DNA of 64,000 bases from Eukaryota sp. TZLM1-RC (taxonomy: Eukaryota; Protista; Metamonada: BaSk clade), in NCBI GenBank assembly GCA_040285825.1, contig JAUPSS010000006.1, positions 372,001 to 436,000 of the forward strand, in the 5' to 3' direction. Each line of letters opens with the position of its first letter. Within the stretch, counting starts at the first letter, position 1. Under the pieces are notes generated by a model. It saw nothing but the letters and a program-made list of their open reading frames with translations. It was not told where the DNA came from and searched no databases. This document shows positions 297 to 64,000 of the stretch, piece by piece. The position numbers and the translations under genes were made by a program.

Positions 297-725
297 CTGA
301 AATCTTGGATTATTTGTAGGGTAATAACAAACTAAATGATGAATTTCTTATTGGAGTTAAACGTGCCTTCAGAGAGAAACGTCTATATATCTCTGGTCTC
401 TCCTCCATTGGGAAAACCACTGTTGTGCGTCTTTTGCAAAAAGTTTGTAATTATTTTTTATTAAGTTTAGGCTGGTCTCCAAGTTTACTTAACTCCCGAT
501 ACCGGTAAATTTGAGAATTTTTGCAACTAAAAATCTGATGTTTGTGTTGCAGATGAACCCAACAGAGTCGAAACCAAAGGTATTGCTCATTGGCTAGCTT
601 GGCTAGATGAAGGGTTTGAATTTTCTTACTAATCACAGATCAATTAATGTTAATGCTCGGAATCACAACGTTCAAAAATACCAAAAGTTACCCACTGTTT
701 TTCTCTCAAATTTGTCAATTAATGA
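297..725 (+). pseudogene. Intron-containing SF3 helicase domain of a CRESS-like Rep (subfamily 1)
   Basis: Removing introns 443-470 and 614-638 gives KRAFREKRLYISGLSSIGKTT (Walker A, 395-418)...DVCVADEP (Walker B)...WLAWLDEG-SINVNARNH (B')...TVFLSN (motif C). In-frame stops present. Confidence 0.8.
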
Positions 726-1560
726 AACTCCGCACGTCCATTAACGATAAAACTAACAGCCAATTGATGGACATTTTTATATATATTTGGATTGATAAGT
801 TTAATACGAGTAATAAGAAACTGGTGATGATGTTTTCGATTTGGAAAATGTATTTGTAAACAAGGTCAATAGACTTGAATCCTCAATTTAATCAAAACAG
901 CTTTTGGCAAACACGCCCCCCCCCCCCCGCAATAAGGACGAAGCCAGTTAAAAGGTCCTTTTGAAAGCTCTAGAGAGAATTCTAGACGTAGTCGACCCAA
1001 ATCCTCATAGCAATGGTGTAGCTCATGCAAAACCAACAAACATCCTGAAGAAAAATGTTGTAAAATGCTGGGAAGACCTGGTTCAAAAAGTAATATCAAA
1101 AGCGTCGGGGGGGAGGGGGGGGGGGCGATAAACGTGATAGAAAACGTAGTACAAATAAATCAGATGAATACACATCTTTTTATAATAATCTTACACACAA
1201 TTCAATCAACACCATTTATACAATGAGCAAAATTGATACAAATTATAGACACCTCAATCCGTTAAAAAGATTTAGAGAGTCGTCCAATCCTGTCGGTTCT
1301 ATCCACAGTGCTAGACTATCCAGGGTGACAGGCAACTAAACAAGTTCTAACGGGGAACTTTGGTTGAAATGTTCAATAAACAACGTGGAAGTAAAGGGCG
1401 AAATTGATAATGGAGCTGCATTCTCAGCATTATCAATGGTTGATTAAATATCCATTGAAAAATGTTGCTAAATTTAGAAAATAACCAACAATACTAGGCA
1501 AATCAGTTTCTTCAAGACATCCAATAGTTGATCAACAACCACCATTACAATTAGTTTCAA
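726..1560 (+). mobile_element. Ty3/Gypsy gag-protease fragment (degraded)
   Basis: Zinc knuckle CSSCKTNKHPEEKC (CX2CX4HX4C) at 1017-1058 and retropepsin-like LKCSINNVEVKGEIDNGAAFSALS at ~1360-1435. Confidence 0.8.
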
Positions 1561-16199: not shown

Positions 16200-17095
16200 C
16201 TTCTTGAAACTAATTGTAATGGTGGTTGTTGATCAACTATTGAATATCTTCAAAAAACTGATTTGACTAGTATTGTTGGTTGTTTTCTAAATTTAGCAAA
16301 ATTTCTCATCGGATATTTAATCAACCATTGATAATGCTGATAATGCAGCTCCATTATCAATTTCGCCCTGTACTTTCACATTGTTTATTGAACAGTTCAA
16401 CCAAAGTTCCCCGTTAGAACTTGTTTAGTCTCCTGTCACCCTGAATAGTCTAGCACTGTGGATTGAACCGACAGGATTGGACGACTCTTTAAATCTTTTA
16501 ATGGATTGAGGTGTCTATAATTCGTATCAATTTTGCTCATTGTATAAATATTGTTGACTGAATTATGTGTAAGGTTATTATTAAAAGATGTATATTCATC
16601 TGATTTATTTGTACTACGTTTACTATTACGTTTATCTCCTCCCTCGCGCTTTTTTGAACCAGGTCTTCCCAACATTTTAAAACATTTTTCTTCAGGATGT
16701 TTGTTGGTTTTGCATAAGCTACACCTTTGCTCTGAAGATTTGGGTCGACCACTTCTAGAATTCTCTCTAGAACTTTGAAAAGGACCTTTTAACTGGTTTC
16801 GTCCTTATTGCGTGGGGGCGTGTTTGCCAAAAGCTGTTTTGATTATATTGAGGATTCAAGGCTATTGACCTTGTTTACAAATACATTTTCCAAATTGAAA
16901 ATATCATCACCAGTTTCTCATTACTCGTATCAAATTTATCAATCCAAATATTCATAAATATGTCCATCAATTGGCTGTTATTTTTATCGTTAATGGCCGT
17001 GCAGAATTTCATTAATTGACAATTTTGAGAGAAAAATAGTGGGTAACTTTTGGTATTTTTGAACGTTGTGATTCCGAGCATTAAAATTAATTGAT
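16200..17095 (-). mobile_element. Diverged copy of the Rep-exon/gag/protease chimera of 639-1560
   Basis: ORFs 16875..17081 and 16436..16675 match 647..859 and 59617..59871. Confidence 0.9.
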
Positions 17096-20950: not shown

Positions 20951-20964
20951 AGAAAATTTTCAAG

Positions 20965-21195
20965 GAAAACGCCAATTACTACATATCTTTCACAAATTTT
21001 GCATTTTTTCCGCCCACAAGACAGGTCTCCTGTCTCTACATGGGAAAATTCTTTAGTTCTATATAGAAATTCATTCAATATTTTCCTCAATGATTGGCTG
21101 CAAGCACAGAAATGCAATTTTATTAAAAGAAAAGGTCTTTGTCCTTACCTTGCTTGCCCAGCTCAATTGGCATATAATGTTAAGACAACCTTAAG
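20965..21195 (+). pseudogene. N-terminal fragment of the Rep family
   Basis: QDRSPVSTWENSLVLYRNSFNIFLNDWLQAQKCNFIKRKG matches 49733-49905. Confidence 0.7.
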
Positions 21196-23240: not shown

Positions 23241-23849
23241 ACACCCCGTGGGGCCCGTAGTGCCGTTAAAATAAAATAAAAATATACTATTACTATTACT
23301 ATTATAGTAGTAATTACTATGATAATTATTCTTCTTCAAAAATCAATTTGTCGTTTGGTATCAAATCTGGCTATACTATTGTAATGCCAAGATTGGTTGT
23401 CAATTGATGATTTTCATTGTTTTTATAAAGTTGTGGTACGTTTCCAACAACTATTTGTTCATTTGTGCAGTATATGCGTTTGTTGAATATAATAGAATAT
23501 GTGTTAAGCCTATACCATACCGACAATATGCATCCTCTGTTAAGCATTATTGGAACGAAATAAGTATTGAATGTGTCGAAGGATGATAATGGTATAATGG
23601 ATCAAATCCTTTACGGTTAAGAGTTGAAGACCAAGTCATCAATTACAATAAGGGTAAAAAAATTCAATAACATGCAAATATTTGTGTAATGAGTATACAT
23701 ACTTGATAATATTGATGATGAAGTAGTAGAATTACCTTTTCATCAACTTCATCCCGTTGGCATCAAGAGCTTTAGTGGAACAGGATGTATGGTATCTTTT
23801 TATGACCGTGATCAGCACTGGTTCTTTTCCAAGCCCATCCACCTCTAAA

Positions 23850-24077
23850 GGACAACGCCAATTACTACTTATCTTTCACAAATTTTGCATTTCTTCCTGA
23901 ATGCCTACAAGACAGGTCTCTTGTTTCTACATGGGAGAATTCTTTAGTTCTAGCAATTCATTCAATATTTACCTCAATGATTGGCTGCAAGCACAGAAAT
24001 GCAATTTCATTAATAGAAAAGGACTTTGTCCTTTTTTTGCTTGCCTAACTCAATTGGAATCCAAAGTTAAGACGACT
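23850..24077 (+). pseudogene. N-terminal fragment of the Rep family
   Basis: NSFNIYLNDWLQAQKCNFINRKGLCP matches 20965-21195 and 49733-49905. Confidence 0.7.
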
Positions 24078-24445
24078 TTACAACATGTTAAAGTCTCTAG
24101 TATCTGCAGTAGCAGTTTCTATAGTTTCTAAAGGGGCGGCCTTCGACTGTCGAAGATTTGACATGTAGTTGAGATAAATAGACTCACAGTTGTTTTGATC
24201 ATGCAATTGCGGAGTGACAGTTAAGCATATGTCATCTGTCTGCAAATCGGTCACTTTTTTAGAAGGATAACTAGACAATGAAGATGATGATTCATATTCT
24301 ACTTCTATTGATTCACAATTGTTCTGGTCGGATAACTGAGATATAATCAATAAGGAAACTTTTGGACCACATCGACGAGCAGAGAACTTCAATTGTTTAA
24401 TCGTTCTCCTCTCGTGTTGTGAACCAACTCCTCTTGTGTTGATTA

Positions 24446-28965: not shown

Positions 28966-30065
28966 ATGGGCGCTACATTCGATCTGCTGCTGTCTGGAGT
29001 TGATATCAGGACATTGAAGTTACATGCATCCGAAGACACAAAAGTTCGAGCCATCTATACTCTAATATTTCTCCACAAAACTCAGTCAACCGTTGCAGAG
29101 TATTTCTGCGTCTCACAGTCTACCATCCACAGGTGGTTACACGAAATCTTTCCTGAACGTCGAAACTCCAGCCCAGCTGCAGCTTTGTTTCCTGATCCCA
29201 ACAGTTCTGCAAAACCTTCCCGTAAACTATCAACAGATGATGAGGTCACTTTCATCTTGCAGCTGATCACTGCACAGCCTTTGCTGTTTCTACGTGAAAT
29301 TAAGAAATTATGCAGAACTAACTTTGGAAAAACTGTCAGTGTTGCGACAATCCATCGGACACTTATTGAAAACAACTTTACAAAAAATGTGTACAACTCA
29401 CCAAAAGAGCCAAAGTACAATTGATCCGTGACTTGGTGAGAAGAATTGACCTCACCATTGGTATAGTTCTTCAGCAACAATTGCTCTTTGTCGACGAAGT
29501 TTCATTCCGATCGGAACATTTTACCCGAACATCAGCGTGGAGTCCAAAGGGACAGAACACTAGAGTTGAACGACCAATTTTTAAAGAAAAACATATAAGT
29601 CTTTGTGTTGCTATGGATCTGAATGGCGTAGTGTTGTATCACATACAAGAAGGACATTTCAATACCCGTCAATTTACTAGTTTTCTTGCAGACCTGTTTA
29701 GACACAGGGTACTGTCGACAATTGGTGGGGCAAATTCTGTTGTGGTACTGGACGGTTGTAACATACATAAGTCCAACAATATCTCTAAAGCATTCCGACT
29801 TTCAGGTGTTCGATATGTCATACTTCCGCCTTATTCGCCGGAATGTAATCCAATAGAAGCCTTTTTTGGTGTACGCAGAAAGGTGAGAGAGTTCTCTCTT
29901 TTTCATCTATCCACCTCCCAGTTGCAGTTACTACAGCTTGTTCTTCGCAATCATATGAATTTTGATTGCAGAGAAATTTTTGCCCACAGTAGTTGGAGAC
30001 ATTTTCGTACATACAAATCTCCTTATCTTCATGGGCCACAATCTGAACAGTGGCAAAGTTTTTAG
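28966..30065 (+). mobile_element. Near full-length IS630/Tc1-superfamily DD34E transposase with a frame break at ~29385
   Basis: Two HTHs, then LLFVDEVSF, VVLDGCNIHK, LPPYSPECNPIE (34 residues between the second D and E). No TIRs identified. Confidence 0.92.
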
Positions 30066-36960: not shown

Positions 36961-38304
36961 AGGTTAATAGTGAATAATGGACAAGTTTTTTCTTATTCTT
37001 GGACAATTTCACCCTACATGTAGACAACACTGTACAATTATTAACCACAACTTCTACATTAAGGATATTCGTATTCTACAACGATCCGAAAAAGGGATTG
37101 TGTTGGACAACAACTCTTTACTACCACGTGATTATGCTCTTGACATTTCCATTCCGATCAAAACTTGGTATGATGATCAACCAATGATTGATTATTACTT
37201 TGAGATTAAAAATAGTGGAGACCTTGATAGTGAAAAATCACCAGTAACCATTAATAAAGTTAAAAGAGTAATAGAAGAGACAGGGGCAAAAGGTCATATT
37301 TTATCAGCTGGTTGTTTGAATAGAGAAGATGTTTCTAGTGAAATTAAAGCCAAGTATAAAGATAGAGAAGTGGGATTTATCACTATGAATGAATTTATGT
37401 ATTTGATTGGAGAAGATAAATTGAATGAAGACGAATTCAAATCTATTCTATGTAATTTATATATACAAATTTAATGAAAAACACCCGATGATGTTGAAAA
37501 AAATATGAAAAAAATCAACGGAGGGCAATTATTTTTTCCTGAAAATGGAAAAGAAAATGGAATGATTATTCTAAAATAATGCTAGGTTTTTTGTTTCGCT
37601 GTTGTGTTTGTGGTACTATCGAAGAAGAGGAAGATAGTAGCGAAGAAGATGATTACGTATTTTTCTATTCATATCCAGAGCCTTTTTTTTAAATTGCCAA
37701 GGAGCCACTGCCAAATGAACTGAGCGAACTTGAGCTGAAATCGCTAAAGGTGACCTTAGAATGGAAGAAGAGAAAATTTTAGTATTCGCGAGGAAGTTTT
37801 TGTGAAAATAAAAATGGAGGAATTTATTTTTTGAGAGAATTGATAATCTCTAGAAAATTGAGTTAAAATTCTAAAATAATGTTAGGTTTTTTGTTTCGTT
37901 GTTTTTGTTGCCACCACAACGAGGGGTTTGATATAGAGGCATCCAATGACAAGGAACTCCAACAACATATTGAAATGTTGGATGCACTATATTGGGAGAC
38001 GAGGCGAACGTAATATTCCCGAAGGTTGTTGAATAAACTGAAGGATAAAACATTACTAGAAAAATGATTTCTTTTCCTATAAAAATAACTATGAGAACAC
38101 CTCAACATAATAGGAGAAATATTAATAAATTTTATACTAAAAGTGATTTGCACAGATTAGGATTTATTAAATCTAGATTTGCCCCTACAAAATTTGCAGG
38201 ATATAGATATATTAAATTTTATGGAGACATAAATGAGCACGTCGATTGTGAAGATGTTATCGATTATTCCATAAATGTTACTCAATGTTAGTATTTGAAG
38301 AAAA

Positions 38305-38565
38305 TAAATATGAATTAATTTTGTTGAGGTAAAAAAAGAAACCCTCAAATAAATTCATTAAATAAAATTGTTGTAAGTATAAAAACCTACAAAGATCCAA
38401 AAACATGTAGACTATACAGACACATGTAATCAGATGTTTCTTGACCGTAGTCAACTTCAAACAGTTAAAAACTGAATGATTGATGATAAGTCAGTCGTTT
38501 ATGTATTTATTAGTAGAGACTCAAACTAAAGAGAATTACTCTCAATGTTTGATAGAGACTCTAAA
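38305..38565. repeat. Trailer repeat, copy 4
   Basis: Direct similarity to 12675-12930. Confidence 0.9.
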
Positions 38566-38689
38566 TTTAAGAATACCCCTGATATTTATTAGTTGTTTTT
38601 TTGAAAATAAAACATTATTGTTTAATATTGATTTATATAGAAAAATGAATAGAGAAATCAAAATATATTGAATATAAATAAAAAGGTGC

Positions 38690-39483: not shown

Positions 39484-41269
39484 TGAAAGGTTAAATATGA
39501 GAATATGCAAACTCTCGGCTGTGTTTTTACTTATGTGAAAATACGTATGTGTAATTTATGTGCGAATACAGACGTACAAATAGTTCAATTAGTTTATTGT
39601 CACCCACGACAAAAATATGCTTTACAACGTATCATTCAGAATATTATTTTTCCCGTACATCTTGAGCAATGTACGTACAATGAATGTGGTGTTGTATATA
39701 CAACGTCTTGACAACTTTGATGACAATGTAGCAAACAATCACAAAAGGCAAAGTAGAGAGTATATATCATTGAATGGGTTGATACAAGAGTGGTAACATG
39801 ATTAAGTTTGATGTGTTGGGACTGTGGGGTACATGGTGTAGTATCACAAACTAATTAGGACAAGCTAGGGTGCTTCGATTGTCTAATCATCTACTTTTTG
39901 TACTCAAACTATATGAACTACCATTGGATTCCACTATGCCACTGTGGAAGACGTTTCAATATAGGTAAATATGTGCTTGTTTTCAATTAAATCAAATTAT
40001 TTGTATTTTGGGTTTATTTTGTAGTTGATACAAAGGAAGGAAACATGTTTGTTTATTACAATAATAACGATAGTAAAACTACACATACAACAGTACCATA
40101 ATGGTTGTCATACACTACACGAAGGTATACAGGTGTGTAAAGTCACATTACAACCGCCAACAATAACGTAGGGAAGACAAATTGGTGATAGAAGGTTGAT
40201 CAGGGTGGGAGCTGAGAATGGATGGTTCCGATTTCCTGATCCGGTATCTCTTCCCTCTCCCTCTGATCCTCTCTGCAGGATGTATCTCTTCCCTCTCCCT
40301 CTGATCCTCTCTGCAGGATGTATCTCTTTTGGATGTTGGATGTTGTAGATGCCGCCCATGTTGACTCCCAAGGCAGCGGAAAAGACCCCGTCACTCTTTA
40401 GCTCAAACTACATCTCCATCAACATTTCAAACTACATCTCCATCAACTCCTCCGGCAGTGCCATCCCCTTCCGTGTATGTTTTTGGACAATTGCGTAATA
40501 TTAACAGACCCTTCAATCACATAATTAGGGATTTTCAATTAGTTCTGAAAGAGCGAGAACGTGAATCTTTTTCCTTTACTTTCATTTTAATCAACAATAA
40601 AATAGAATGTATTTCCACTGAGGACCCAGAAGACATAATGAATTTTTGTAATTCAGCTAATTAATTCTAAAAGTACAATTTATATTAAAAGGTCTCATTG
40701 CCGCAGCTAAGGAGGAAAAGTCTTTGTCAATTAAATAATAAAAAATCATACTGGTCTATAAGTTTAAAACAAAAAAGGATGGGATGAAACTGAGAAGAAT
40801 TGATTCCCACTAATAGAGATACATTGCATAGGCATTTGATACCATTGTGGAAATTAGCAATCTGAAATTGCAATCATCATGTCAGACATCGTGTCAGACA
40901 GCGAGATTATCTTGACTCTTTCCATTCTTCTAACATTATGCAGCAAAACGAGGAAAAGGATGACGATGTTACAGACCCGGTTCATCTCCTCCTTCAACCT
41001 GTTCTTCACAGAACAGCAGAGTACTTCCTTTCTCCTTTGGTTTTGATCCTTCTGCGATTGTACTTGCTTATCTCTTCCCCTCATCTACACAGACTGCTTG
41101 ACGCTCCGTTCTTCTGCCATGAACATCATTTCGATACTGCTTTTGGTCTTGATCTCTCTTCTTGATTCTGTTTTTGTTGTCATTGCTAACAATTATCTCT
41201 TTCTCTCTTGATACTCCTTTCTTTTCGGATCAGTGATCATCATGATGTCTCCCTATTGTCCCGTCAGTC

Positions 41270-44378: not shown

Positions 44379-45616
44379 TTAAAACTCCACGTCCTCAAAA
44401 CCTGCCTCTTTTACTTCAAAACAATTAATTGCCAAAGATTCAGAAAATTTCCCAAAAGAAGACAGTGAATCAAAAATCAGTTTTACCATTCCCTTAAAAA
44501 CAGAAAATACAATCCTGTTTTGCCAGTAAACACGATTGAAAATTCTTCCAGTTCTTTCCTTTACAACTGCATTAAAATCTTCAAGGAAAGCCATAGCAGC
44601 CTTACCCAAAGATCCAAGCAAAGAAAATACAAAGGGACATAAATTATATTGGGCATGAGAATTTTCATTAATCGAGGAAATGGGTTTCGCATATTTAGCA
44701 ATTTTATATTTTTCGCCTGCAAGAAGAGGATTATTTACATCTGAGTTAATGAGATGTTCGTTAGAGGCATTACAAGGGTCAATAGACATGGCGTCTAAAA
44801 TAGTAAAACTACCATTTAAACCGGGAACAACTAGATCAGCTCTTGTCAGACCCATAGAAGCTCTGTTGTAACGCGTACTATCAATATTGGGATCATCAAG
44901 AATTAATTTTGATAACAGCGGTTCTAAAAAGGAATCTACTCGATATGATTTGCACATTACATAAATTTGGTCCCTGACGTTATTATGCACTTTGCTTCTA
45001 AATGTAATAAAATGTTTACAGTTCAAAAGATGAGTAAACAAAAGAGGTTTACTACATTTACAAGTTAAATGATTGGGCAAATTGTTTGGCCACAGAAAAC
45101 AACGAAAACGCATGTTTAAAAGCCATTCATTGTTTATTAACAAAAGTCCATATACAGAGGGAATTTGAGTTACTAACGCAGCAGCAGAGCTATCACGAAT
45201 ATCCTTTAAAAAATTACCGAAAGCGGGATTTTTAGTTTTGGCCAAGCCATGTCTTACTTCACCTAAATCAAAAAGACTAAGAACCAATTACTTTAATTGG
45301 TATTCTAAGAACAAAAAACATGACTTCGAATTAAAGATTCATTTACCTCCAATAATGAGGAAAAAAATTTGGCCCGAAGTTTGTTGAAAGATCTACAAAA
45401 ATCAAAAGACACTGAAGGAGGAGTTGATCTTAAAATATGAGTGAATTTAGCAGAATAACAAATTTTTAAAATAAAAAATTTGATGTGCTTTTCAATATCA
45501 AATTCAGCAATAAAACTAAGATCCTTATCAAAATTTTCCAATAAATTGTTCAATTGAGAATAAATTTCATCCAAATTACCTAACCAACATCCAAGATGGT
45601 CCAAGGTTTTCACCAA
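44379..45616 (-). mobile_element. RLE-type (CRE/R2-like) non-LTR retrotransposon 3' part: RT end, Zn finger, restriction-like endonuclease
   Basis: DHLGCWLG; CKCSKPLLFTHLLNC; HNNVRD; RADL; EKYKIAKY; PFVFSLLGSLG. Internal deletion or frame break near 45300. Confidence 0.9.
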
Positions 45617-47279: not shown

Positions 47280-47430
47280 TGCCAAGGATCCAATGCGCCA
47301 CACCAGAAAGTATGTTTATTGTGTATAACTAATATCAGCAATTACAGAAGAGAAATGTATCGTCTAACAACCTCACTGAGCATTTTTTTTAAGTTATTGG
47401 ATCCAGATGCGTTTATTTGTTATGCGAACG
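47280..47430 (+). pseudogene. Family X fragment with intron
   Basis: Near match to 22195-22335. Confidence 0.65.
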
Positions 47431-48749
47431 ATGTTGGCGCCTTTAGGCTTTTATAATATGAATAGAAAATAAATCAGTTATCTTAACCACACTTTTCCAA
47501 TTTACGGCATCACCGAACCTATAGAAAACCTTCCTTCTCCTTCTGCTATTCTTTCTTCCTGATCTTTAATCGACTCATCAAATCTGTCTGCTACTGCTTT
47601 TCCTCCAGGTATGTGTACACTTTCTGGTGATCCTAAGGCTAACCAATCCTGTTCTTCTCTCAGTTGTTTTTCTATTTCTTGTTTCTTTTTTTCATCTAAT
47701 TCAAACTTTTTCTTGATTTCTGTCCCTGCTTGAGACATATGTTTCATTTCTTTTTTCAGATCTTTTGGTAATTGTGCTTGTCCAATGGCACTTTCTTCTT
47801 GTAATTGTTGTTCGTCTTCTGCAGGTTCCATTGCTTGTACATCTCCTTCTAAATGTGGTAGTACACTTGCTGATAAGTGTTTCTTAATTGGAAAGTATAT
47901 TAGAAGCTGATGGGTTGGGTAATATTCCCGAGTCTGATTTGGAAAATAAAATAAAACAAAATACAAACATTACAATGGAAGAAATTCGTAATTTTTCTGA
48001 TAATCTTGCCATGGAAATTAGAACAGCATCAGTTGTAATGAATAGAATTAGAATTGACACTTTACATTCTGATGGTTCAGATATTAAAATTAATCAGGAA
48101 ATTAAATCATTTACAGAGATGGTTCAACAAGCAATTGCAAATACATCAACAGAAATGTCAACTGATTTTAAAGGATATTTGGAAAGTTTACAAGATGTTG
48201 AATCAAAAAATAAATTGAGTTCAACTGGACTGTATTTTTGGTGGTTAATGGATGATTATTTTATTATTATTATAATGTTATTATTATGTTAATGTTGAAT
48301 ACATTATGTTTGCAATGGATTTAAAATACATTATTTTCTGCATAGTAAATGATACGTGACTTTATTATAAGAGTTTCAATTATTATTATGAAATCTGTTG
48401 CTAATGATCATGATTTGTTTGATGATGATCATAGAATTGCAAAATATAGTTCAAGTGTTCATGATGATGATGATAAAATTAGTTTTAATGTTGGAGATGA
48501 ATATGTTCGTGGATTTATTAATTATGACATTACAATTCCCAATATTATTACATCCAAATTTGATGCGTTTCAATATTGTTTTGATACAATATAGAAAGAG
48601 AGAACAACAAATCATAAAAAAATACGTTAATTGTGATTTTTTCTGTAATGTCCAAAATCGAGAAATATTTATTTGTGACATTTCCATTGTTCGAAATGAT
48701 GCATTTAAAAAAAATCATTTATCTATTAATCTAAACATATTTTCAACTT

Positions 48750-49020
48750 TCATATCATTTGAACAATGACTTAAATTTAAATGATTTAATTCAATTGCAA
48801 ATTTAGCAAAATCATCATCATTTCTCAATCTTTCTGAACAAAATTCAAAATTTTCAGGCATTTTTTTAATTGCAAATTTAGCAAAATCTTTATTATCTCT
48901 CAATCTTTCTGAACAAAATTCAAAATTTTCAGGTAATACTTCAATTGCAATTTTAGCAAAATCTTTATTATCTCTCAATCTTTCCGATAACCATTCAAAT
49001 GCATAACCATCTTTTTCAAT
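48750..49020 (-). pseudogene. DUF4116-like repeat protein fragment
   Basis: Repeated FEFCSERLRDNKDFAK(I/F)AI units of 25 aa. Confidence 0.7.
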
Positions 49021-49032
49021 CTTTATTTCAAA

Positions 49033-49683
49033 ATGGCATTATCACTATCAGCACTTACATCTAGTGATTTATCAAAATTTGTGAAAAAAGACGAAGTTGA
49101 AGAATTGGATGATGAAGATGAACAATCATTTGATACATCGAGTTTTATGGAATTAATTGGAGACAAAAAAGATGAATCTGAAAATGAAGATGATGAACAA
49201 TCAGATAGTGAATCAGATAATGGTTCAATTTCAACAACCCAAAATGAAATGTTTAATCAAAAACAAGACGAAAGTTTCAAGACAGAAAGATTTAAACCAA
49301 GTGAAATTTTTTCAAATAAAAAACAAGATGAAAGTTTCAAGACAGAAAGATGTAGACCAAGTGAAATGTTTAATAAACCAGATAAAATGTTTAATCAAAA
49401 ACAGGACGAAAGTGTCAAGACAGAAAGATTTAATAAACCAGATAAAATGTTTAATCAAAAACAGGACGAAAGTGTCAAGACAGAAAGATTTAATAAACCA
49501 GATGAAATGTTTAATCAAAAACAGGACGAAAGTGTCAAGACAGAAAGATTTAACAAACCAAGTGAAATGTTCAACAAAAAACCAGAAAGTTCAAGTAGAG
49601 AATCAGAGGAAACAGATTTAAATAAAAAATCAGAAACATTTTTAAAGGGAGGAAGTCCAAAATTAGAATCATTTAATAAATAA
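49033..49683 (+). CDS. Acidic low-complexity protein with 20-aa (60-bp) tandem repeats
   Basis: ATG-to-stop ORF of 216 aa with MFNQKQDES(V/F)KTERFNKPD repeats. Confidence 0.55.
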   Translation: MALSLSALTSSDLSKFVKKDEVEELDDEDEQSFDTSSFMELIGDKKDESENEDDEQSDSESDNGSISTTQNEMFNQKQDESFKTERFKPSEIFSNKKQDESFKTERCRPSEMFNKPDKMFNQKQDESVKTERFNKPDKMFNQKQDESVKTERFNKPDEMFNQKQDESVKTERFNKPSEMFNKKPESSSRESEETDLNKKSETFLKGGSPKLESFNK

Positions 49684-49730
49684 AATAAATCATCTTTATC
49701 TTAATTCCACTTTTCCAACCTACGGCATCA

Positions 49731-51760
49731 ACAAGACAGGTCTCTTGTTTCTTCATGGGAAAATTCTTTAGTGCCTTATAGAAATTCATTCAATCTTTTT
49801 CTCAATGCTTGGCTGCAGTGTCAGAAACGTAATTTTATCAATAGAAAGGGCTTTCTCCTTACCTTGCTTGTCGGGCTCGTCAATTAGCGTCTAACGTGAA
49901 GACAAGTCTACCTAAAATTTGTCAATCCTGGACAAAAAATTTTATTCGTGGTCATTGTAGAGCTCTAGATAAAACAAATGTTTCTGCCAATTATCCTCTC
50001 TCTCTTGCCAGATGAACCATTAGCCCAACCCGAAGAAGTAGTTGCTGATTCTGTTCTCAAACACTACATCAATTTCAATCGGAATAATTCAAGAGAAAGA
50101 TTCTTTTTATTAAATGCATGTAAATTTATCTTGAATATCCTTCAAAGATTTCCTGTAGGAAAGTGGCACTTTTTAAAAAATCATCTTCTGAAATCTCCTA
50201 CGCTGCTGTGGATAAAGTGAATATATTTCAAACCCGCAAACTGTTTCCGCTGTTGTGCTATAAGGGAACTAGTATCAAAATTATGGTTGCTGTTTCAACT
50301 TGGCTGAAAAAAAATTAAATTTTCAAAAATCAGATCTGATCAGAAGACACGTCTTTTGTATGAGTTAGATGCTGACTTTGTCCGTAAATAAATATTGTTG
50401 TATGTTTATATTGTGTTTCAGTTGTCCTTTTTCGCAGATATCGCACATACCCTCAACACCAAACTCCTGCTCCTACTGAACTAGTTTCGTCCCATCGTCC
50501 ACGTCGACGTTACCGAAAACATATGTATGTTTTTTCTGTTTATTTATTTCAGTCCACTTGTTGATCATGCCGCCAATAGATCCTTCAACCATGTGGTGCG
50601 CTATTTTCAAAAAGCCCTTGCTGAAGATAAATGTGAGTACAAATGTTTCACCTTTCTTAAAGGTTTGATTTCTGATGCTAAGACCAGGAGATAATCATGA
50701 ATTGATTCGTTCTGTTCTTCATGATTATGAAGGCAAAGCCAAACATCTTGAAAAACAAAGCCAAGTTACTAGGCCAAGCCGAGGTCAATAGCAAGTTTGA
50801 TACCATTGGTTATTTGGTTTTGGACAATATGATTTTCCGATTGGTTTCAAGAGGGCTTTCCGGAAAAAGCATCTGTATGTCTCTGGTCCTTCCTCCATCG
50901 TTGAAACAACCATCATTAGATTACTGAAAAAAGTATGTTTTTTACTGAAAACTAACCCTAGGCTGGACTCAAAGTCTATATGGCTCCCGATGCTGGGAAA
51001 TTCGAAGACTTTGAGAATTTTCGATACGACGTCTGCATTGCTGATGAACCAAATAGAATTGGAACACAGCAAATCTCTCATTGGATGGCCTGGCTTGACG
51101 GAGGGTATGTAATTTTTTATTACTAATCACAGTTGCATGAATGTCAATGCGAGATATCACAATGTCGCGAAAACCCAAAATCTAACAACAATTTTTCTTT
51201 CAAACCTCTGAATGAATTGGTTTTGGGTATGTTTATTTTTATTTTATTAATTCTAGATACAGTGGACGAAGAACAGAAAAACAACATGTGTATTGGTTGT
51301 TGAATCTGCTCTAAATCCAGTGGAAGTACTACATGATGATGGTATGTATATTTTTACTGTTTAACCTTAGGATCAAGAATTGTGCACAACTATCACAGCT
51401 CCAAGGCAGGAATTCCTGTAATGTTGGCCATTTGGAAGCCCATTGTTCAAGAGCAGGTAGCCAAGGACTACAAAAACATCAACAGTATTCGCCCAGTTGT
51501 ATGTAAAACTCAGCCTACTCACCACAAATTCGTATAAGATATTTTCGATGCCGTCGAGTCAAGAGAGCAGGTGATACTGAATGGCAGATATGTATCTCTG
51601 GCCAATCTCAATTGTGCTTTACATCTCTCCATGAGGATGTAGCACAAGATATATTCGAGGTTGGTCAGCGACTCTCTGATTGGACTCCTCAACTCGAACA
51701 GTCTCCTCAACAACAATCAGCTGCTCCTGTTACACAGAATCAGAACTCCTCCTAACCCTG
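49731..51760 (+). mobile_element. Multi-intron CRESS-like Rep pseudogene (N-terminal extension, possible HUH motif I, SF3 helicase, C-terminal domain)
   Basis: FLLNACKFIL(x)YP at 50101-50141 with a 1-nt loss; HLYVSGPSSIVETT (Walker A, GK>VE); YDVCIADEP; WLDGG-CMNVNARY; TIFLSN. Introns at 50933-50961, 51105-51132, 51227-51256 and 51342-51370. Confidence 0.75.
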
Positions 51761-51771
51761 GGATGGGATAT

Positions 51772-53180
51772 TCATCTCATTTTACCAATTTCTTCATCTT
51801 TTATGTTGGAAAATAATGTTGGAAAAATCAATGTGTTCCAATCACTGTGGTCTTGAATATGTATAGTCGAATAAGCTAAAAAACAATGTTGATAATGTTT
51901 AAAGTGTGTGAATGTGAGTGTAATGTGTAGATTTTCATTATCATTGACCATAATCCCTATCATTTTGCATAACTTCAAAATAAGCTATGGAACTGTAAAA
52001 CCTATTAATTATGTGTGTATTGTATAAGCTCTTGCAAGTATAAAATGGTATATAAAAGTTTGTAATATCTGATAGAGAATTTGAAATTTTATTTCAAAGT
52101 TTCACATTTTTCAAAAAGTAATACAACTCTTTCATAAATCTTTGTTAATTGCTACAAACAAATTTTATGTGTTGGTTTTAACATTGTCAATTTATTGATA
52201 TCATCATTACGTAATGTGATATTTTTGTTACCTCATGTTACTAATTTCTTCATCTTTTATGTTGCAAAATAATGTTGGAAAAATCAATGTGTTCCAATCA
52301 CTGTGGTCTTGAATATGTATAGTCGAATAAGCTAAAAAACAATGCTGATAATGTTTAAAGTGTGTGAATGTGAGTGTAATGTGTAGATTTTCATTATCAT
52401 TGACCATAATCCCTATCATTTTGCATAACTTCAAAATAAACTATGGAACTGTAAAACCTTTTAATTATGTGTATATTTTATAAGCTCTTGCAAGTATAAA
52501 ATGGTATATAAGAGTTTGTAATATTTGATAGAGAATTTGAAATTTTATTTCAAAATTTCACATTTTTCAAAAAGTAATACAACTCTTTCATAAATCTTTG
52601 TTAATTGCTACAAACAAATTTTATGTGTTGTTTTTAACATTGTCAATTTATTGATATCATCATTACGTAATGTGATATTTTTGTTATCTCATTTTACCAA
52701 TTTCTTCATCTTTTATGTTGGAAAATAATGTTGGAAAAATCAATGTGTTCCAATCACTGTGGTCTTGAATATGTATAGTCGAATAAGCTAAAAAACAATG
52801 TTGATAATATTTAAAGTGTGTGAATGTGAGTGTAATGTGTAGATTTTCATTATCATTGACCATAATCCCTATCATTTTGCATAACTTCAAAATAAACTAT
52901 GGAACTGTAAAACCTTTTAATTATGTGTATATTTTATAAGCTCTTGCAAGTATAAAATGGTATATAAGAGTTTGTAATATTTGATAGAGAATTTGAAATT
53001 TTATTTCAAAATTTCACATTTTTCAAAAAGTAATACAACTCTTTCATAAATCTTTGTTAATTGCTACAAACAAATTTTATGTGTTGTTTTTAACATTGTC
53101 AATTTATTGATATCATCATTACGTAATGTGATATTTTTGTTATCTCATTTTACCAATTTCTTCATCTTTTATGTTAGAAA
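51772..53180 (+). repeat. Tandem array, ~3 x 456 bp
   Basis: Near-identical short ORFs at 51772, 52228 and 52684 give a period of 456. Confidence 0.95.
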
Positions 53181-54519
53181 GCTCAATCAAATGAACCTTA
53201 TCAATCACGTAGGGGTAAAATGTACCCATTAGATTAAAAAATATTTGTAGTTATTTCTTCTTTTCCTTTAGAAAGCAATCCTTATCTTCAAGGAGAGCTT
53301 AATCATTTATTCAAACAAATATATAATGCGCCTGATTTGCCAAACAATAAGGACCAATTTTTGGCTGTTGTTAACCGATTCAAAAAAATGTTGTTGACTT
53401 GAACGATATAAACCAATGCCTAACACTTTTGCAAGTCAAATCACAGTGATATTGTTGTGAATGTTTTTTATGGTCCACTATAATTATTAGTTAATTTGAG
53501 AATTTTATAACAATATCTTATTTATAAAAATAAATTTAATTTCTTCGCACAATTTTTTTATTCAGTAATGACATAAACTTACCCACTTGCACCAATTGCG
53601 GTTGTGTTTTCAGATACAGGCCATTAAAGTAAGCTGACTGATTGTGACTATAAGACCAAGTTTTAAAATTCTTTTAGTCAGTTATTATATACTTGAGTTC
53701 TGTTCTAAGATTTGAAGTATAAGTAAACATAATTATTTAATTACTTTTGGGCATAGTCGTGAGTAAAAAACTGTTCACAATACGTTTTTGGTCAATTTTA
53801 AGTACAAGGTAATTTTGTAAAACTTCCACACATATATTCTACTGATGTCTTTTGATGCCATTTCTACTCCAGCTTCTCCTGATGACTTGCAAACACCTGA
53901 CGTAAGTCATGTTTGTAAACAGCTTGATTTCTCATCAACTTGTGCAACACAACCAACTACCAATACAGCACAACACACCACAACACACCACAAACAACCC
54001 GAGCTTTCGCTTACATCAATCATGAATAGTTTGAATGTTCCTGTCAGTAGCGCTCAGTGACCGAGTATATCTCTCGACGAGCTAATGATCTTATTACAGA
54101 TCTTAGAACTTCAATTCGTGAGTCAAGAAAAAGAGTTTCGTCGGTAGCATTTATGCCACCATCTGTGGAAGAGCAGATCATGAAAGCAGACAATGTTGAA
54201 GATCCACATAGTACAGAATAGTTGTGGTTTTCGGTAATACTTTTATACTAATTTTCGGTAATACTAATATAACTAATAATCTTTATTCCAATTGTGACAA
54301 TAAACACGCATTTTCTAGATATGGGGACTGATACTGTTTTCCATTTTTATAGCCTGCATGATCTAGGATACCTCTGCAATTCAGTTTCTTATGGTGTTTT
54401 GATATAAAATACAGAATTTCAATCTGATTAAACTACTTTGCGCTCTTACTGTTTTTCTGAATATCGCAAAAAATGTCTCGATTGGATTTTGTTCTGGACA
54501 ATATGGAGGTAGTATGTAT

Positions 54520-57500
54520 GAGTTGTATGACTTTTTGAAATATGTGAGATTTTAAAATAAAAATTCAAATTCTCTATCAAATACTACAAACTCTTATTTA
54601 TCATTTTATACTCGCAAAAGCATATACAATACACACATAATTAAGAGGTTTTACATTTACATAGTTCATTTTGAAATTATGCAAAATGATAGGGATTATG
54701 GTCAATGATAATGAAAATCTACACATTACACTCACATTCACACACTTTATACATTATCAGCATTGTTTTTTAGCTTATTCGACTATACATATTCAAGACC
54801 ACAGTGATTCAAACACATTCATTTTTCCAACATAAAAGATGAAAAAATTAGTAAAATGAGATAACAAAAATATCACATTACGTAATGATGATATCAATGA
54901 ATTGAGAATGTGGCATAGTGAATGGGTCAACATCATCGGGGATGCTAGAAAATGATATCCTAAGGAGTTTGTTAAAAAGTGGCTACAAAAGGAATTTATG
55001 CACTTCAAATGCAAATCACAGAATTAAAATGCAAATTGACTTTGCAATTTTGATTTTCATCCTCCATGATGACACCCTTTCATTGAGTAGTGATATTTCT
55101 AATCCCATGCACACTTAGCCCTTTCCGTCGTTTCCTAGTCACAGTAGACACTAACGGTTGGTATCTTCACACTTTTTGATGACTGTAATCTCTCTGTTGC
55201 TTACCTCTCAACAGTACTACATCTCTTCTTCACTGATAACTCTACCCTCAAAGTCTCTCATCCCTTCCTTGCGATCTCCGTCCCGTCTCTCTCATTTGGG
55301 GTAACTGAGTGGTATCAGTACTCGAATAGACTCTCTGCAATTCTTTTCCATTGTTTTCCGCCACCAGTACCGATCCATATCCATGTTTAAATCTAAACTT
55401 GGAATCAAAAGTCGGACACCGGGACTCGAACCCGGACGGATGTACCTATTGAACTTTGGTGTTGGGTTGTTGGATGCCAACATGTCGGACATTTTTTGCT
55501 TCTTTTTTTCTTTTTTGTGTTATTTTTTTGTTGTTATCACCACTTCTTTTAACAATTATTCTGGAAATTTTTTTTATTTAGTTTCAATTTTTTGTCTTCT
55601 CATTTATCAATCACTATTACTGATTTTGATATTGATCAGCACGAATCTAATTATGGTTTATTTATTGGAGTCTCTACCAAATATTGAGAGTAATTCTCTT
55701 TATTTTGAGTCTTTATCAATAAATACATAAATGACTGAGTAATCATCAATCATTCAGATTTCAACTGTTTGAAGCTGATTACGGTCAAGAAAGATCTGAT
55801 TACATGTGTCTGTATAGTCTACATGTTTTTGGATTTTTTTAGGTTTAATGTTTACATTGTTATCTATCTATTAATTAGGGTTTCTTATTGACAACTTACT
55901 GCGTTTATGCCTAAAGGTTTTTCGCGTCCTCCTAATCGAGTTTGCCATTGGTTCATGACATAGCAAAAATACCAATTCTCTTCATTCATTGTTTTCAAAT
56001 CCTCTTGAGCATAACCACTGATTCTGCTGGTTCTCGGTAGTTACTGGACATGTAGTCACTTTCGTCTATGTATGAAGTATCACACTGTTGGTCCAGCCAT
56101 AATATTACTTCCATCTGACAATTAAACTTTTTGAAAACAACAGCTGGATAGTCCTTTAAATGTGGCTTTACGTTCTTTTTGAACATAAGATCTTCATATT
56201 TGATTCTGTCTTTTTTACTAGGGATGTCATTTTTAAAACCAAGTTCTTGAGGATCAATCAACGGTTTCAAAATAAATATGATGATCTGCGGTGGTTAGAC
56301 ATTATACCTAGATGTAGAGTAATTTATTACAAGGGAATGAGGATTCCCCTCATTTTAAGCGCATGGGCGCAATAATACAATAAACTATAAATAAACTATA
56401 AATAAACTATTATCCAAGGCTAACACTGCCCTTTCTTCTTTTCGAGCGTCGAGGCCTGATAGGAGTTGGATTAATATTATTATTAATATTATCAGAACGA
56501 CGTTTACGGCGTGAAGGACGAGAGCGAGTATTAGAAATAGACTTGGAGAATTCTTTATAGGCAGAGGTGTTTTGAACAGTCGGAACCAGCATTCTACGAA
56601 ATCAGTGCCCCTGCATAGTAGAGAGTTTTATATTTGATTTGATTCCAGAATCAATCTTGTATTCATGGTTATATTCCATAGAGGAAGGAAGAAAAAAAAC
56701 ATTACTTAAAATAAAAGTGATTCTTAATTTCAGTGGTAATATGATTGCCAGGCCATTGGACTTGACAGTAATCACCATCCTGACTGAGGACTTTCTGGAT
56801 CACGTGCTCTTCTGCATCGCCAGCGGCAACCCAGGAGTGAAATTCATCATTTGCTGGTAAACTGGAATGCCAAGGTTGGAGGCGCTTCACACTGGCTTTA
56901 ATTACCATACCAGTACAAAGATTCTTGATGTTAGCTGTGGAGATAGAGGGTGTGTCAATAACTAAGAATTGTCCTTTGTAATTACCATGTAACTTAGCAG
57001 TGGAAGACGAAGCTCGTTTGACCAATTGGCCAGGAGAGAAAGGGTTGGCTTCTCATTGGGAATCGCGAGGAGGAGGAGCCTTGGAAGCTTGACGGAGCTT
57101 CCTCCTGTTTCTTCTTCAATCTAGCAAATTTAGATTGAATGTCGTTGATGTAGGTTGACTCAGACGTTGAGCTTTCGAGGGTCACAAGTCTTTCTTGATC
57201 TAATCTGATTGAGGAGGTCAAATGTTATTTCTTGACAAACATCTGTAAAAAGAGGTGTTGCTAGCTCTTGAAGTGTTGGATCTGATCAAATTGTTCTGCT
57301 ATTTTTTTCACCTGACTGAAATAATTGCTAAATGCAAATAATTAATAAATGCAAAATGAGATAAAGAATCAATAACGTATTTGTTTATAAAAATACAACC
57401 ATCACAAACAATCAATCTAATTTCGGTGTACGTTTACGGTTAATGTAATCCAGTACCCAGTCATCTGCGCAATTGTACTTGGGTAACCATGATACCCATG

Positions 57501-60500
57501 AGGAATATTTCTCCCTAATAGTTGATGTTAATAAAGAACTGTTGGATCTGCGTGTTCTAGTTTTTGTGGTAACCGCCAGGGAAGAATCCAGAGAAGAGAA
57601 TAGAGCGTCTTTTTGAACCACATTTAAGGTGGAAACTGGAAAAGCAGGATATGATTTGTCCGAATTAGCAAAGAGTGATATGAACAAAATACTGAGAGGG
57701 AGGGGTTCTGTTACCTCTGAATCATCAATGCTAGAATGCAGCTGCACATTCCACATTAATACCATCTGTGCATTTTGCATTTGGTGGAATGCAGTAACCA
57801 TTTCTTTGGCTTGTTGCCAAGTCAACGGTTGCTTCTTTATTTCATGATCTTCTTCATCTTCATCATTGCTTGAATCTAAGTCGGCAATGTCCCCAGGAAT
57901 GAGTTCCAATTCTGGATCCCGGTGAGAATTCTTAACAGGGGGTTCAGGGCATTGTTGCTCTTTGGCTACATCATCGGCCAGGGAGGGAGTACGGCCAGAG
58001 TGAATGATAGTTGGACGTGCACGACGAGATCTAGTCTTGGGAGGCATATGGAGGAAGTTAAAAGGAGATGGAAGTAGATGTTGAACTACAGGAAAACGTA
58101 AACGGGTAGTTTATTACAGAGGGTGTGAATAATCAGGGAAAATTTCTTTGGGGATTGGAACAATGGAATTAGTATTATAAGTCAGCTCATTTTCAATAAC
58201 ATGGAAATGATAATAGTAGCAAGCTGCCAAATAATTGTGAGAGAAGAAATCCAATTTCCTCTTGTGAAGAAGTCCGTCAAGTTGGGAGAAAACTCCGGTG
58301 CGAAATGATGGGGGACCTATTTTCATATAAAGAACGTCTTGGAATGAAAGCTCTCTTTCCGGAAGAACGAGAAGCTCCTAGGACGTGAGCCGGAATCTTC
58401 GTTTCGGTTGTAGATCCCCTATTATGGGGACCACCTTTTCAGCATCGGAAAAGCCAGGGGCAGCGGCATGGCGATAAACACAGGGAGCAGCAAGGACATC
58501 GGACAATGGATTCTGGTGCCAAACCAAATATTTGGAGTCATCTATGATGTTCTCCAATATTGGCTTATTGGTAGCTGGATTAATTGAAGAAATATTTGTA
58601 TGTTCATTTTGTTTCAACAGGTTGCTATTTGAAGTTAATAAGCGAACCTTGATACCTTCTTTTTCAGCATATTCCAGAACAGATTTCTCAAGCCTACGTC
58701 TATATGTGTTGGAATAATTAGCTTTGTTTTTACGTAAGTGTCGAGAAGATTCCCAATCCTCTGTTTTGATAATGGGAAGAGAGTCATGGGGAATGACCCA
58801 AGAAGACTGATGCAAAACCTGAATTGTAGTGGTACCGGAGAGTGTCCCTTGGTGAGTCAAGTTTTTCATTGTGATCATTGTTTGAACCCTGTCGTTCCTA
58901 AATGACCACAATAAAATTCCACTTTCCGATGCTTTTACTATTAAAAAAGCATCATCTAAAATGATAAATGATGTACTAGTCGATTTTCTTTCAATATTAA
59001 AACAATCTGTTTCTTTCTTTTTTTTGTACATATTTTATTTAGGATTAAATTTCGTAATACTTTCATTGTTATAATTAAAAAAATAAAATCATTTTTATAC
59101 TATTTTTATTGTTATAAATAAATAGATTACTTAATTAAAATATCTATATCTTTAAATACGTCACGAAATTCTTTGAAGGTATCTGACTTTTTTATCTTAT
59201 TAGAACACGCCATGACAGAATAATCAGACGCCCCAAATATCCCACACAATAATTAATAATTTCAGGCTGTTTCGAAGGTTGTACAACTCTGAGTCATCCT
59301 CAACATGATGATCACTCTCTTTATGGGGAAGGTCACTTTCTTTCTGACTTCTCTCAGCGGGAAGTTCACTCTCCTTTGGAGGACTCTCCTTATAATTGAA
59401 ACTAATTGTAATGGTGGTTGTTGATCAACTATTGGATGTCTTGAAGAAACTGATTTGCCTAGTATTGTTGGTTATTTTCTAAATTTAGCAACATTTTTCA
59501 ATGGATATTTAATCAACCATTGATAATGCTGAGAATGCAGCTCCATTATCAATTTCGCCCTTTACTTCCACGTTGTTTATTGAACATTTCAACCAAAGTT
59601 CCCCGTTAGAACTTGTTTAGTTGCCTGTCACCCTGGATAGTCTAGCACTGTGGATAGAACCGACAGGATTGGACAACTCTCTAAATCTTTTTAACGGATT
59701 GAGGTGTCTATAATTTGTATCAATTTTGCTCATTGTATAAATGGTGTTGATTGAATTGTGTGTAAGATTATTATAAAAAGATGTGTATTCATCTGATTTA
59801 TTTGTACTACGTTTTCTATCACGTTTATCGCCCCCCCCCCGACGCTTTTTTGAACCAGGTCTTCCCAGCATTTTACAACATTTTTCTTCAGGATGTTTGT
59901 TGGTTTTGCATGAGCTACACCATTGCTATGAGGATTTGGGTCGACTACGTCTAGAATTCTCTCTAGAGCTTTCAAAAGGACCTTTTAACTGGCTTCGTCC
60001 TTATTGCGGGGGGGGGGGCGTGTTTGCCAAAAGCTGTTTTGATTAAATTGAGGATTCAAGTCTATTGACCTTGTTTACAAATACATTTTCCAAATCGAAA
60101 ACATCATCACCAGTTTCTTATTACTCGTATTAAACTTATCAATCCAAATATATATAAAAATGTCCATCAATTGGCTGTTAGTTTTATCGTTAATGGACGT
60201 GCGGAGTTTCATTAATTGACAAATTTGAGAGAAAAACAGTGGGTAACTTTTGGTATTTTTGAACGTTGTGATTCCGAGCATTAACATTAATTGATCTGTG
60301 ATTAGTAAGAAAATTCAAACCCTTCATCTAGCCAAGCTAGCCAATGAGCAATACCTTTGGTTTCGACTCTGTTGGGTTCATTTGCAACACAAACATCAGA
60401 TTTTTAGTTGCAAAAATTCTCAAATTTACCGGTATCGGGAGTTAAGTAAACTTGGAGACCAGCCTAAACTTAATAAAAAATAATTACAAACTTTTTGCAA

Positions 60501-60932
60501 AAGACGCACAACAGTGGTTTTCCCAATGGAGGAGAGACCAGAGATATATAGACGTTTCTCTCTGAAGGCACGTTTAACTCCAATAAGAAATTCATCATTT
60601 AGTTTGTTATTACCCTACAAATTATCCAAGATTTCAGAATAAACTTAACAAATAGATTAAGGATGAATAGATATTTGATAAATAGAATCAAAAATATTAA
60701 AAATGTTTAAGAATAGTGATGAGATATAAAAAATAAATAAATATAAACGTATTACAAAGTTATTAAAATTAATTCATATAATTATATCAATTTTAAAAAT
60801 TCTAATAAATATATTGCTGACAAAATTGAAGATTAACGTCAACGGTTATAATGGTGTTGTTAATAATCTGTTTCTCACAGCTTTGATGCAATAATTTTTT
60901 TGTGAATTTTGGCAACTCTGTGGGATAAAATA
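54520..60932 (-). repeat. Right arm of long inverted duplication; mirrors the Rep, gag/protease, integrase, LTR, trailer, B-box and 456-bp unit of the left arm
   Basis: Direct reverse-complement match with small indels (G-run region 1090-1125 vs 59830-59850; 6-bp indel near 4930/56020). Confidence 0.95.
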
Positions 60933-61690: not shown

Positions 61691-63140
61691 ATTTAATTCC
61701 TTTTGTCAATCCGATCGATCGGAAATTGGAAACAGAAAAACTGTAAACATTACAGATATCCTTTCCAGATATCCCCTGAAACCTTGCCAACCCAACTCTG
61801 TTATGGTTAGTTTTGGCTCTTTTTACTTCATTTCATTTGCTTGCATCACCGTCCTTCACCCCCAATCTCCATAAATACCAGATCTCTTACTGAACTTTTG
61901 ATGACAATTTCTATCTGTGCTCACCATCTTCACCGCATCTCTTCCTAGTGATGTGAATCTCCGTTGAACTCACCACCTCTTCAATGAATTATTCTGGTCT
62001 GCTCTCATCTGCAAAATTTTGAGATGAATTGACAGTCGCACAGTGGGACTCGAACCCAGATGGATGATTTTGATTGTGTTGATGTGTCATTAAAATGGCA
62101 AACACATATTGCATTAATTTTACATGCTGATTAGATTATTTAGTTATTTATTTAATTTTTGTTTTTTATTTATTGATTATTTAGGCAAACTCAGTCATTT
62201 TGCCTAAAGTAGTTAATTTTTAATTTGCTTTATTGGTCATGGTCAGTTGACGTTCACAGTTAACATTCCTATGTGAATGATGCTGTGAAAACTTCAGCCA
62301 TCTCTCTTCTTTTGAACTACTGACATTACCTCAAGTCTCCCATGCTTTCTGATCTCAAGTAATATCCTTTCTTTCACTCCAATCACTCCTCTCCGTCTCT
62401 ATATTCTCAACTTTCCTTCCAGTTGGTGTACATGATATCTTTTATTTTGCATTCCATGGATGTTACTTCATTAAACTTTATGCATCCATGTCAAGGGGTC
62501 AACACATTGAAAGTTGGGTTGGTCAATTTTTGAGAGTTCATGAGACTCGAACCCGGAACCTAGGCGAATTCAGTTATTCTGTTTTAACTCTTTAAATTCT
62601 TAAAATAAAGTTGCTTTATTGGTCTTAATCATCTGTCCCTTTTCTTTTTTTGCTGTTATTTCAATTTTTTACTTGTAGTTTTTTATGTATATTTTTTACA
62701 AACCAAAATTAATTTGACTATGATTATTGCTATGTTTCTGAAATATCAGTTTAAATTAAATTCAATTATGACATTTGGTAAATTTGTTTAAATGATAAGT
62801 ATCATAAGGTTTATTTCTTTAAGTTTTTGATTTTAATTTTGTTTTTTTTCGCTGATTTTTGTTTACTACTAATTTATTGGAGTCTCTTCCAAATATTGAG
62901 AGTAATTCTCTTTATTTTGAATCACTCAGTACAAACAAAAACGACTGAATAGTCATCAATCATTCAGTTTTTAACTGTTTGAGCTTGATTACGGTCAAGA
63001 AAGATCTGATTACATGTGTCTGTATAGTCTACATGTTTTTGGACCTTTGTAGGTTTAATACTTACAACAACTTTATTTATGAATTGATTTAAGGGTTTCT
63101 TTTTTTACATCAAGATGATTTATTCATTTTTATTTTCTTT
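61691..63140 (+). other. Complete cassette unit: leader (61691-61799), ORF remnant, B-box (62045-62057), ORF remnant, B-box (62542-62554), trailer (62870-63140)
   Basis: Each part matches copies elsewhere in the window; an ATG plus hydrophobic MVSFGSFYFISFACITV follows the leader. Confidence 0.6.
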
Positions 63141-63189
63141 ATTTTGTATTTCTTCATTTTATATAATTTTTATTATGTATTGACATGAC

Positions 63190-64000
63190 TAAAGCAGGGT
63201 CGATTTTTACTCGACGACATCTAAAACATCGTATGCGTATCTGCGATAAGCAGGCTTGGTTGAACATACAATTGGACGAATGTTTACTATACTTTCATAA
63301 TCATTTGCAACTAATTTTTGCACAGCTGGATTCCAAATGGCCAACATTACAGGAATTCCAGCCTTGGAGCTGTGATAGTTGTGCACAATTCTTGATCCTA
63401 AGGTTAAACAGTAAAAATATACATACCATCATCATGTGGTACTTCCACTGGATTTAGAGCAGATTCAACAACCAATACACAGGTTGTTTTTCTGTTCTTC
63501 GTCCACTGTATCTAGAATTAATAAAATAAAAATAAACATACCCAAAACCAATTCATTCAGAGGTTTGAAAGAAAAATTATTGTTAGATTTTGGGTTTTCG
63601 CGAAATTGTGATATCTCGCATTGACATTCATGCAATTGTGATTAGTAATAAGAAAGTACATACCCTCCGTCAAGCCAGGCCATCCAATGAGAGATTTGCT
63701 GTGTTCCAATTCTATTTGGTTCATCAGCAATGCAGACGTCGTATCGAAAATTCTCAAAGTCTTCGAATTTCCCAGCATCGGGAGCCATATAGACTTTGAG
63801 TCCAGCCTAGGGTTAGTTTTCAGTAAAAAACATACTTTTTTCAGTAATCTAATGATGGTTGTTTCAACGATGGAGGAAGGACCAGAGACATACAGATGCT
63901 TTTTCCGGAAAGCCCTCTTGAAACCAATCGGAAAATCATATTGTCCAAAACCAAATAACCAATGGTATCAAACTTGCTATTGACCTCGGCTTGGCCTAGT
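63190..64000 (-). pseudogene. Second copy of the Rep helicase/C-terminal region, running off the window
   Basis: 63329-64000 is a near-identical reverse complement of 50768-51438, including introns and lesions; 63190-63328 is a diverged homolog. Confidence 0.85.

Follow-up and report, generated by a model that had tools for sequence, protein, structure and literature searches.

A broken, intron-split SF3 helicase gene in a protist genome, related to CRESS virus Reps and lacking a detectable HUH domain

Insertions resembling the Rep genes of CRESS viruses have been described in protists, fungi and plants (PMC3198968, PMC9615429, PMC7758297). Helitrons and Replitrons are likewise resident in eukaryotic genomes and linked to the Rep family. 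Helitrons join a Y2 HUH domain to an SF1B (Pif1-like) helicase, whereas the locus described here encodes an SF3 helicase with no detectable HUH (PMC10288648). Replitrons encode an HUH transposase without a helicase and carry short terminal direct repeats, so that the domain content of our locus is the opposite of theirs (PMC10288648). The literature that we covered, which is incomplete, held no published multi-intron endogenous CRESS Rep, and the word "intron" is absent from the main text of PMC3198968 and PMC9615429.

The locus lies at positions 49731-51760 of a 64,000-nucleotide stretch of genomic DNA (the window). Gene model P0001, which agrees with it exon by exon, is labelled Eukaryota sp. 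TZLM1-RC, and because this label is used for the metamonad Skoliomonas litria (PMC11603281), the host is likely this free-living species. The main text of the corresponding genome preprint does not contain the word "virus" (bioRxiv 10.1101/2023.05.03.539051). The window is AT-rich and dense with mobile-element debris, including a Ty3-type integrase/RNase H (9610-11577) and pieces of DDE_3 and helix-turn-helix transposases (28879-30065 and 36241). ORFs at 13874-14290 and 44379-45287, which have no Pfam match, resemble the C-terminal ends of non-LTR retrotransposon proteins. Three related pieces (9284-9721, 22194-22568 and 47289-47431) each carry an intron signature of 29 nt in the corresponding position; the one at 22194 has a weak tyrosine-recombinase match (Phage_integrase, E 3e-4), and we take all three to be Crypton-like. 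Immediately 5' of the locus, a 230-aa acidic ORF without a Pfam match is built on a 60-bp tandem repeat (48991-49683).

Our preferred reading, held with about even confidence, is that the locus is a broken, intron-split SF3 Rep helicase gene without a detectable HUH, which was captured by the host, was once used in spliced form and then decayed. Because the Rep helicase is found without a detectable DNA-nicking part, it is likely to be a captured viral gene rather than a new rolling-circle transposon.

When 28-29-nt GT-AG introns are spliced out, the locus yields an SF3 helicase that is most closely related to geminivirus-type CRESS Reps. As the initial annotation had stated, its motifs then stand in the correct order: Walker A, Walker B (VCIADE), B' (VNARY) and motif C (IFLSN). 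The exons, all on the + strand, are 50831..50932 (Walker A, which reads LYVSGPSSIVETT), 50962..51104 (Walker B, placed by Rep-profile alignment), 51133..51226 (B' and C, with a frameshift right after motif C) and 51257..51341, a frameshifted exon across the arginine-finger position. The arginine is visible only in P0003, a cleaner paralogue outside the window, and is not seen in the copy at 51257-51341. The relatives discussed below are assigned to lineages A to D, of which A includes the locus. The GK of Walker A is absent from the copy at 49731-51760 and missing from lineages A and C and from all three helicase gene models (P0001, P0002 and P0003); it is confined to lineage B, in the copy at 395-418 and in its duplicate near 60540.

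An intron- and frameshift-aware alignment of a Rep profile to the locus scored 89-111 bits, and 58 control stretches, scored with the N-terminal sub-profiles, reached at most 18-20 bits. With P0003 as the query, 258 of 1.84 billion representatives matched at E<=1e-3. Gemini_AL1 is carried by 53 of the 68 relatives that were scanned, namely the best 40 and 28 longer ones of the 148 non-self relatives listed. The hhalign comparison gave 99.4% to a CRESS Rep SF3 helicase, the Atlas agreed, and a fold search with an alignment-driven model (pLDDT 80) returned a CRESS Rep as its best match (E 1.6e-14). A helicase profile scored 74-90 bits at the locus versus 94-147 bits in 25 viral loci, the former value being raised by the use of P0003 hits to build the profile. 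No family was found by Pfam in the window exons or in P0001-P0003, single-sequence PDB searches gave no significant match, and NCBIfam and PHROGs gave none. Because CRESS Reps are its best match both in sequence and in fold, the protein is neither a D5-like primase-helicase nor a cellular AAA+ ATPase. These matches, together with the shared introns, uphold the proposal that it is an intron-rich SF3 helicase with subfamilies, derived from a CRESS Rep.

Of the introns originally listed, three stand. Those of 29 nt (50933..50961, +, phase 0) and 28 nt (51105..51132, +, phase 2) were placed unprompted by the splice- and frameshift-aware Rep alignment and are common to lineage B, where they occur at the same position and phase (443-470 and 614-638) with different sequences; this sharing between two lineages had also been noticed at first. 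The third, of 30 nt (51227..51256, +), agrees with P0003. Two others are probable: one of 29 nt at 51342..51370 (+), from its signature and the automatic gene models P0001/P0002, and one with a GTGA donor at 50633..50662 (+, phase 1), which has a counterpart at 40561-40605. The remaining two, at 50525..50552 (28 nt, +) and 50400..50437 (+, alternative acceptor at 50421), are candidates recognized by signature only. Because like signatures of 27-30 nt are also present in other elements of the window, the introns look host-type.

The exons of lineages A and B are ~65-66% identical in protein, with 33, 13 and 62 differences at the three codon positions (chi-square p=5e-8), a pS of 0.85 and a pN of 0.19. 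This pattern in the aligned exons indicates that the two helicase lineages diverged under purifying selection, and the predicted introns appear older than the split between them. Since introns are common to A and B and the protein was under selection, the introns were presumably present while that selection acted.

Directly upstream of Walker A is a frameshifted segment with a stop (50575..50830, +) that is conserved among family members, including P0003 and a copy at 40503. Aligned with P0003 it scores 81, versus 24+/-4 for shuffles, none of 500 reaching as high, and it models as three helices (31-82, alignment-driven model). Its position and this model make it likely to be a helical oligomerization region, although an oligomerization profile gave no significant score on 50575-50830; natural relatives span 7-89 bits. 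The copy at 40503..40740 (+; tblastx E 3e-4), a piece that the initial annotation had missed, is a diverged relative of this segment with no helicase after it and represents lineage D. Its alignment to the locus scores 76 versus 22+/-4 in shuffles, with one intron of the 40503 copy chosen by hand; the part independent of the seed match is weaker, scoring 39, a value that 14 of 1000 shuffles reached. At the other end of the gene, a C-terminal extension (51371..51755, +) has no viral or Pfam match.

Starting from six related Reps together with P0003, a search produced 25 viral loci of 2.2-4.9 kb. All 25 contain the nonamer TA(A/G)TATTAC, and terminal redundancy is present in 22. Second ORFs encode gemini- or STNV-type capsids in each of the 10 loci tested. 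Some 3.3-kb CRESS contigs have a second capsid-like ORF beside the main one (L021:265-840, L022:365-1129 and L023:1350-1988). Within the window, the best score to a profile of the 25 relative capsids was 2.7 bits, with no tblastn match, and the nonamer has four matches, none of them near the Rep in 49600-53300. In a quick tree that has no bootstrap and no named reference Reps, the three helicase lineages group in a single clade, whose stem measures 2.3 substitutions per site; 8 of 36 chosen proteins were left out of this tree because they had no motif match. Neither this tree nor another quick tree recovered a sister relation to P0005, P0010, P0018, L001 and L002, which a segment in common ahead of Walker A had suggested.

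These viruses bear on the alternative that survives best, in which the copies are endogenous viral elements left by repeated integrations of an unsampled CRESS lineage whose Rep was already multi-intron, HUH having been lost or replaced in the copies seen. The relatives are indeed small circular viruses with a Rep, a gemini- or STNV-type capsid and the nonamer, and both the saturation of synonymous divergence and the mosaic copies are what viruses typically show. Rep-only endogenous elements also prevail in protists, accounting for 37 of 38 in Blastocystis (PMC9615429). However, in 23 of the 25 viral loci a single frame runs without a break from HUH through YxxK and Walker A to motif C, so that their Reps are unspliced, and lineages A and D both have low-complexity sequence instead of HUH upstream of the conserved segment. 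No close relative was found in viral or metagenome contigs, and the window lacks a capsid. On balance we consider this origin unlikely.

The distribution of copies was first described as about seven sites of one element. This apparent dispersal mixes two families and segmental duplicates. Positions 1-6449 are an inverted duplicate of 54513-60932 (6.4 kb, 98% identical, with helicase, gag/protease-like and integrase-tail debris), which explains sites 297 and 60210 as one duplication. The lineage B copy that it contains (341..726, +; duplicate at 60208..60593, -) is helicase-only, with GK present, an internal stop and nothing homologous past motif C. Site 17010 is a 90-nt scrap of lineage B with motifs B' and C only (17002..17095, -), located in a 0.9-kb duplication, and sites 20965 and 23850 belong to a different repeat, termed family F. 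Site 63190 is a near-identical copy of lineage A (63206..64000, -; gene model P0002), which runs off the window and whose second helicase intron has no AG. Up to 51437, only 9 of 670 bases differ between this copy and the locus (98.7% identical); 51438-51562 is ~68% identical to it, which makes the pair mosaic. Codon-position differences in the mosaic tail (11/11/19) are not significant (p=0.21), and the exon comparison with lineage A copy A2 showed 2 differences over 107 codons.

None of the copies seen is intact: lineage A is broken by frameshifts and stops, lineage B by a stop and truncation. Because no intact copy was seen, GK is missing in the gene models and lineage B has a stop, the case for a cellular role comes only from past selection. 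Statements on copy number cover the window and the gene models. Length-limited searches found three helicase gene models (P0001-P0003), all on a contig of one size. Repeat masking preceded gene prediction in this genome and could hide high-copy elements (bioRxiv 10.1101/2023.05.03.539051).

The window copies showed no shared termini, and both their ends and their neighbors differ, the latter being family F, gag/protease debris, a 230-270 bp repeat or a 456-bp tandem. The 456-bp unit is present in 3.1 copies directly downstream of the locus (51774..53180, +), where its link to the gene is putative. With its small hairpins it is found also at 6039-7016 and 54513-54911, and at all three places it lies 3' of a helicase copy in the same orientation, at 19 bp once and at ~5.3 kb in the duplicated block. 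A non-coding repeat of 230-280 bp is present six times, with 84-90% identity, at 5061-5290, 12663-12947, 27591-27828, 38298-38575, 55660-55889 and 62872-63145, and one of these repeats starts ~60 bp past the end of the 63206 helicase copy.

Such surroundings are relevant to a second alternative, that the helicase travels as cargo, or serves as a helper, in some other mobile element with an integrase or transposase of its own, as in a truffle DDE transposon: the Tuber melanosporum element combines a Rep with a transposase and has 37-bp TIRs (PMC3198968). All helicase copies lie amid mobile-element debris, short-intron signatures are present in neighboring recombinase-like pieces, and gene model P0152 has the same junction with family F and is only a few gene numbers from P0003. 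Because the neighbors change from copy to copy and most family F members continue without a helicase, we regard a cargo role as rather unlikely.

A virus or selfish element would also agree with the selection between lineages, the mosaicism and the dead copies among transposons. In metamonads, the gene could serve the replication of an intron-rich selfish element or ssDNA virus that has not been described so far, its CRESS-derived SF3 helicase working with a separately encoded or very diverged nickase or integrase and intact masters residing elsewhere in the genome. This we judge distinctly unlikely.

According to established Rep biochemistry, a Rep without HUH cannot nick an origin. Autonomous rolling-circle transposition is therefore unlikely for the form observed here. 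The initial annotation had proposed that the locus may be a rolling-circle transposon that combines HUH with SF3 and descends from a CRESS Rep. Its HUH motif I, obtained by restoring one base, lies in 49731..50157 (+), a fragment of the separate, dispersed family F that is not part of the Rep-derived gene; homology to the gene-model relatives stops at 50157. The upstream frame, used as a query, matched 15 gene-model clusters (P0152-P0166), one with n=27, on contigs of seven different sizes. All 15 match 49731-50157 only, none of their gene models contains a helicase, and most members run on into sequence unlike that of the window. The supposed motif I is covered by 12 of the 15 models, all of which keep the unshifted frame; 11 of these run on to QRF, and none reads xYP.

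Further family F fragments, again not Rep, are at 20962..21193 (+), behind a transposase-type helix-turn-helix ORF, and at 23742..24089 (+). The family is high-copy and encodes a mostly helical protein of 200-310 aa. Pfam assigned its models no family at E<0.09, and the protein has no match in Pfam, NCBIfam, PHROGs or the PDB. Family F may resemble the N-terminal half of Fanzor1; a PDB profile search, the Atlas, a low-confidence model (pLDDT 40) and a fold search lent this likeness no support.

An HUH would be expected in 50158..50574 (+), a region about the size of an HUH domain that is partly rich in Pro, Ser and Thr and whose membership in the gene is putative; none was detected there. Across 24 splice forms in three frames, a Rep HUH profile scored at most 1.2 bits upstream of the helicase (50158-50830), versus 88-129 bits in all 25 viral relatives; the search covered this copy and the 64-kb window, and an intact master copy with HUH may exist elsewhere in the genome. 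A motif III look-alike at 50563-50613, which includes the YFQK stretch (50575-50613), scored 16 bits, which 4-7 of 58 controls reached; the relative at 40503 lacks both its Y and its K. This stretch and TYPQ at 50445, considered as motif I, are at chance level. A multi-lineage family under selection, with dead copies, host-type introns, no capsid, upstream room for a nuclease and a 456-bp hairpin tandem array directly 3', would suit an autonomous HUH+SF3 transposon, but the foreign origin of motif I, the control-level motif III, the missing HUH signal, the lack of shared ends in the window and the restriction of helicase gene models to a contig of one size leave it highly improbable.

If the locus is instead a captured host gene, as we prefer, a geminivirus-type Rep gene would have integrated long ago and lost its nuclease early. 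The helical linker and the ATPase would have been kept, while host-type introns of 25-45 nt and a new C-terminal tail were gained, and at least three to four lineages would have arisen while selection acted on the protein. A period as a spliced nuclear host gene would then have been followed by decay. The protein may have been an oligomeric DNA-binding ATPase or helicase, unable by itself to start rolling-circle replication, and interference with incoming CRESS viruses is one candidate use. Passive multiplication, by local duplication of segments and by recombination in a region dense with transposons, may account for the present copies.

This history would tie geminivirus-type CRESS viruses, whose environmental relatives are not linked to any known host, to a free-living metamonad lineage. 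It would also mean that a viral SF3 helicase gained several spliceosomal introns, as predicted here, and stayed under selection afterwards. To our knowledge, such assimilation is uncommon for a gene class that is normally confined to viruses. An intact copy, should one exist, would make it possible to test what a captured Rep helicase does.

Among known systems, the Reps of Repensiviricetes (Gemini_AL1 plus SF3; L001, L002, P0004, P0005, P0010 and P0018) resemble the locus in their SF3 domain (~30-43% identity), motif order and fold. Unlike them, it has no detected HUH, four or more predicted spliceosomal introns in and after the helicase, and an extra C-terminal tail; and unlike the viruses that encode them, it is chromosomal and broken, with no capsid or origin nearby. 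The endogenous CRESS Reps of protists, fungi and plants are, like the locus, Rep-only, multi-copy, clustered, often degraded and sometimes under purifying selection (PMC3198968, PMC9615429, PMC7758297). The locus differs from those in print by its predicted gain of introns at common positions before the lineages split. The avipoxvirus gene apvRep-5 is also a captured cressdnavirus Rep cut down to the helicase and under purifying selection, but its recipient is a poxvirus and its donor one of the Draupnirviridae, whereas the locus is a nuclear gene with introns (PMC10193959). On present evidence, the locus adds no new class of transposon and is a variant of the endogenous Rep genes.
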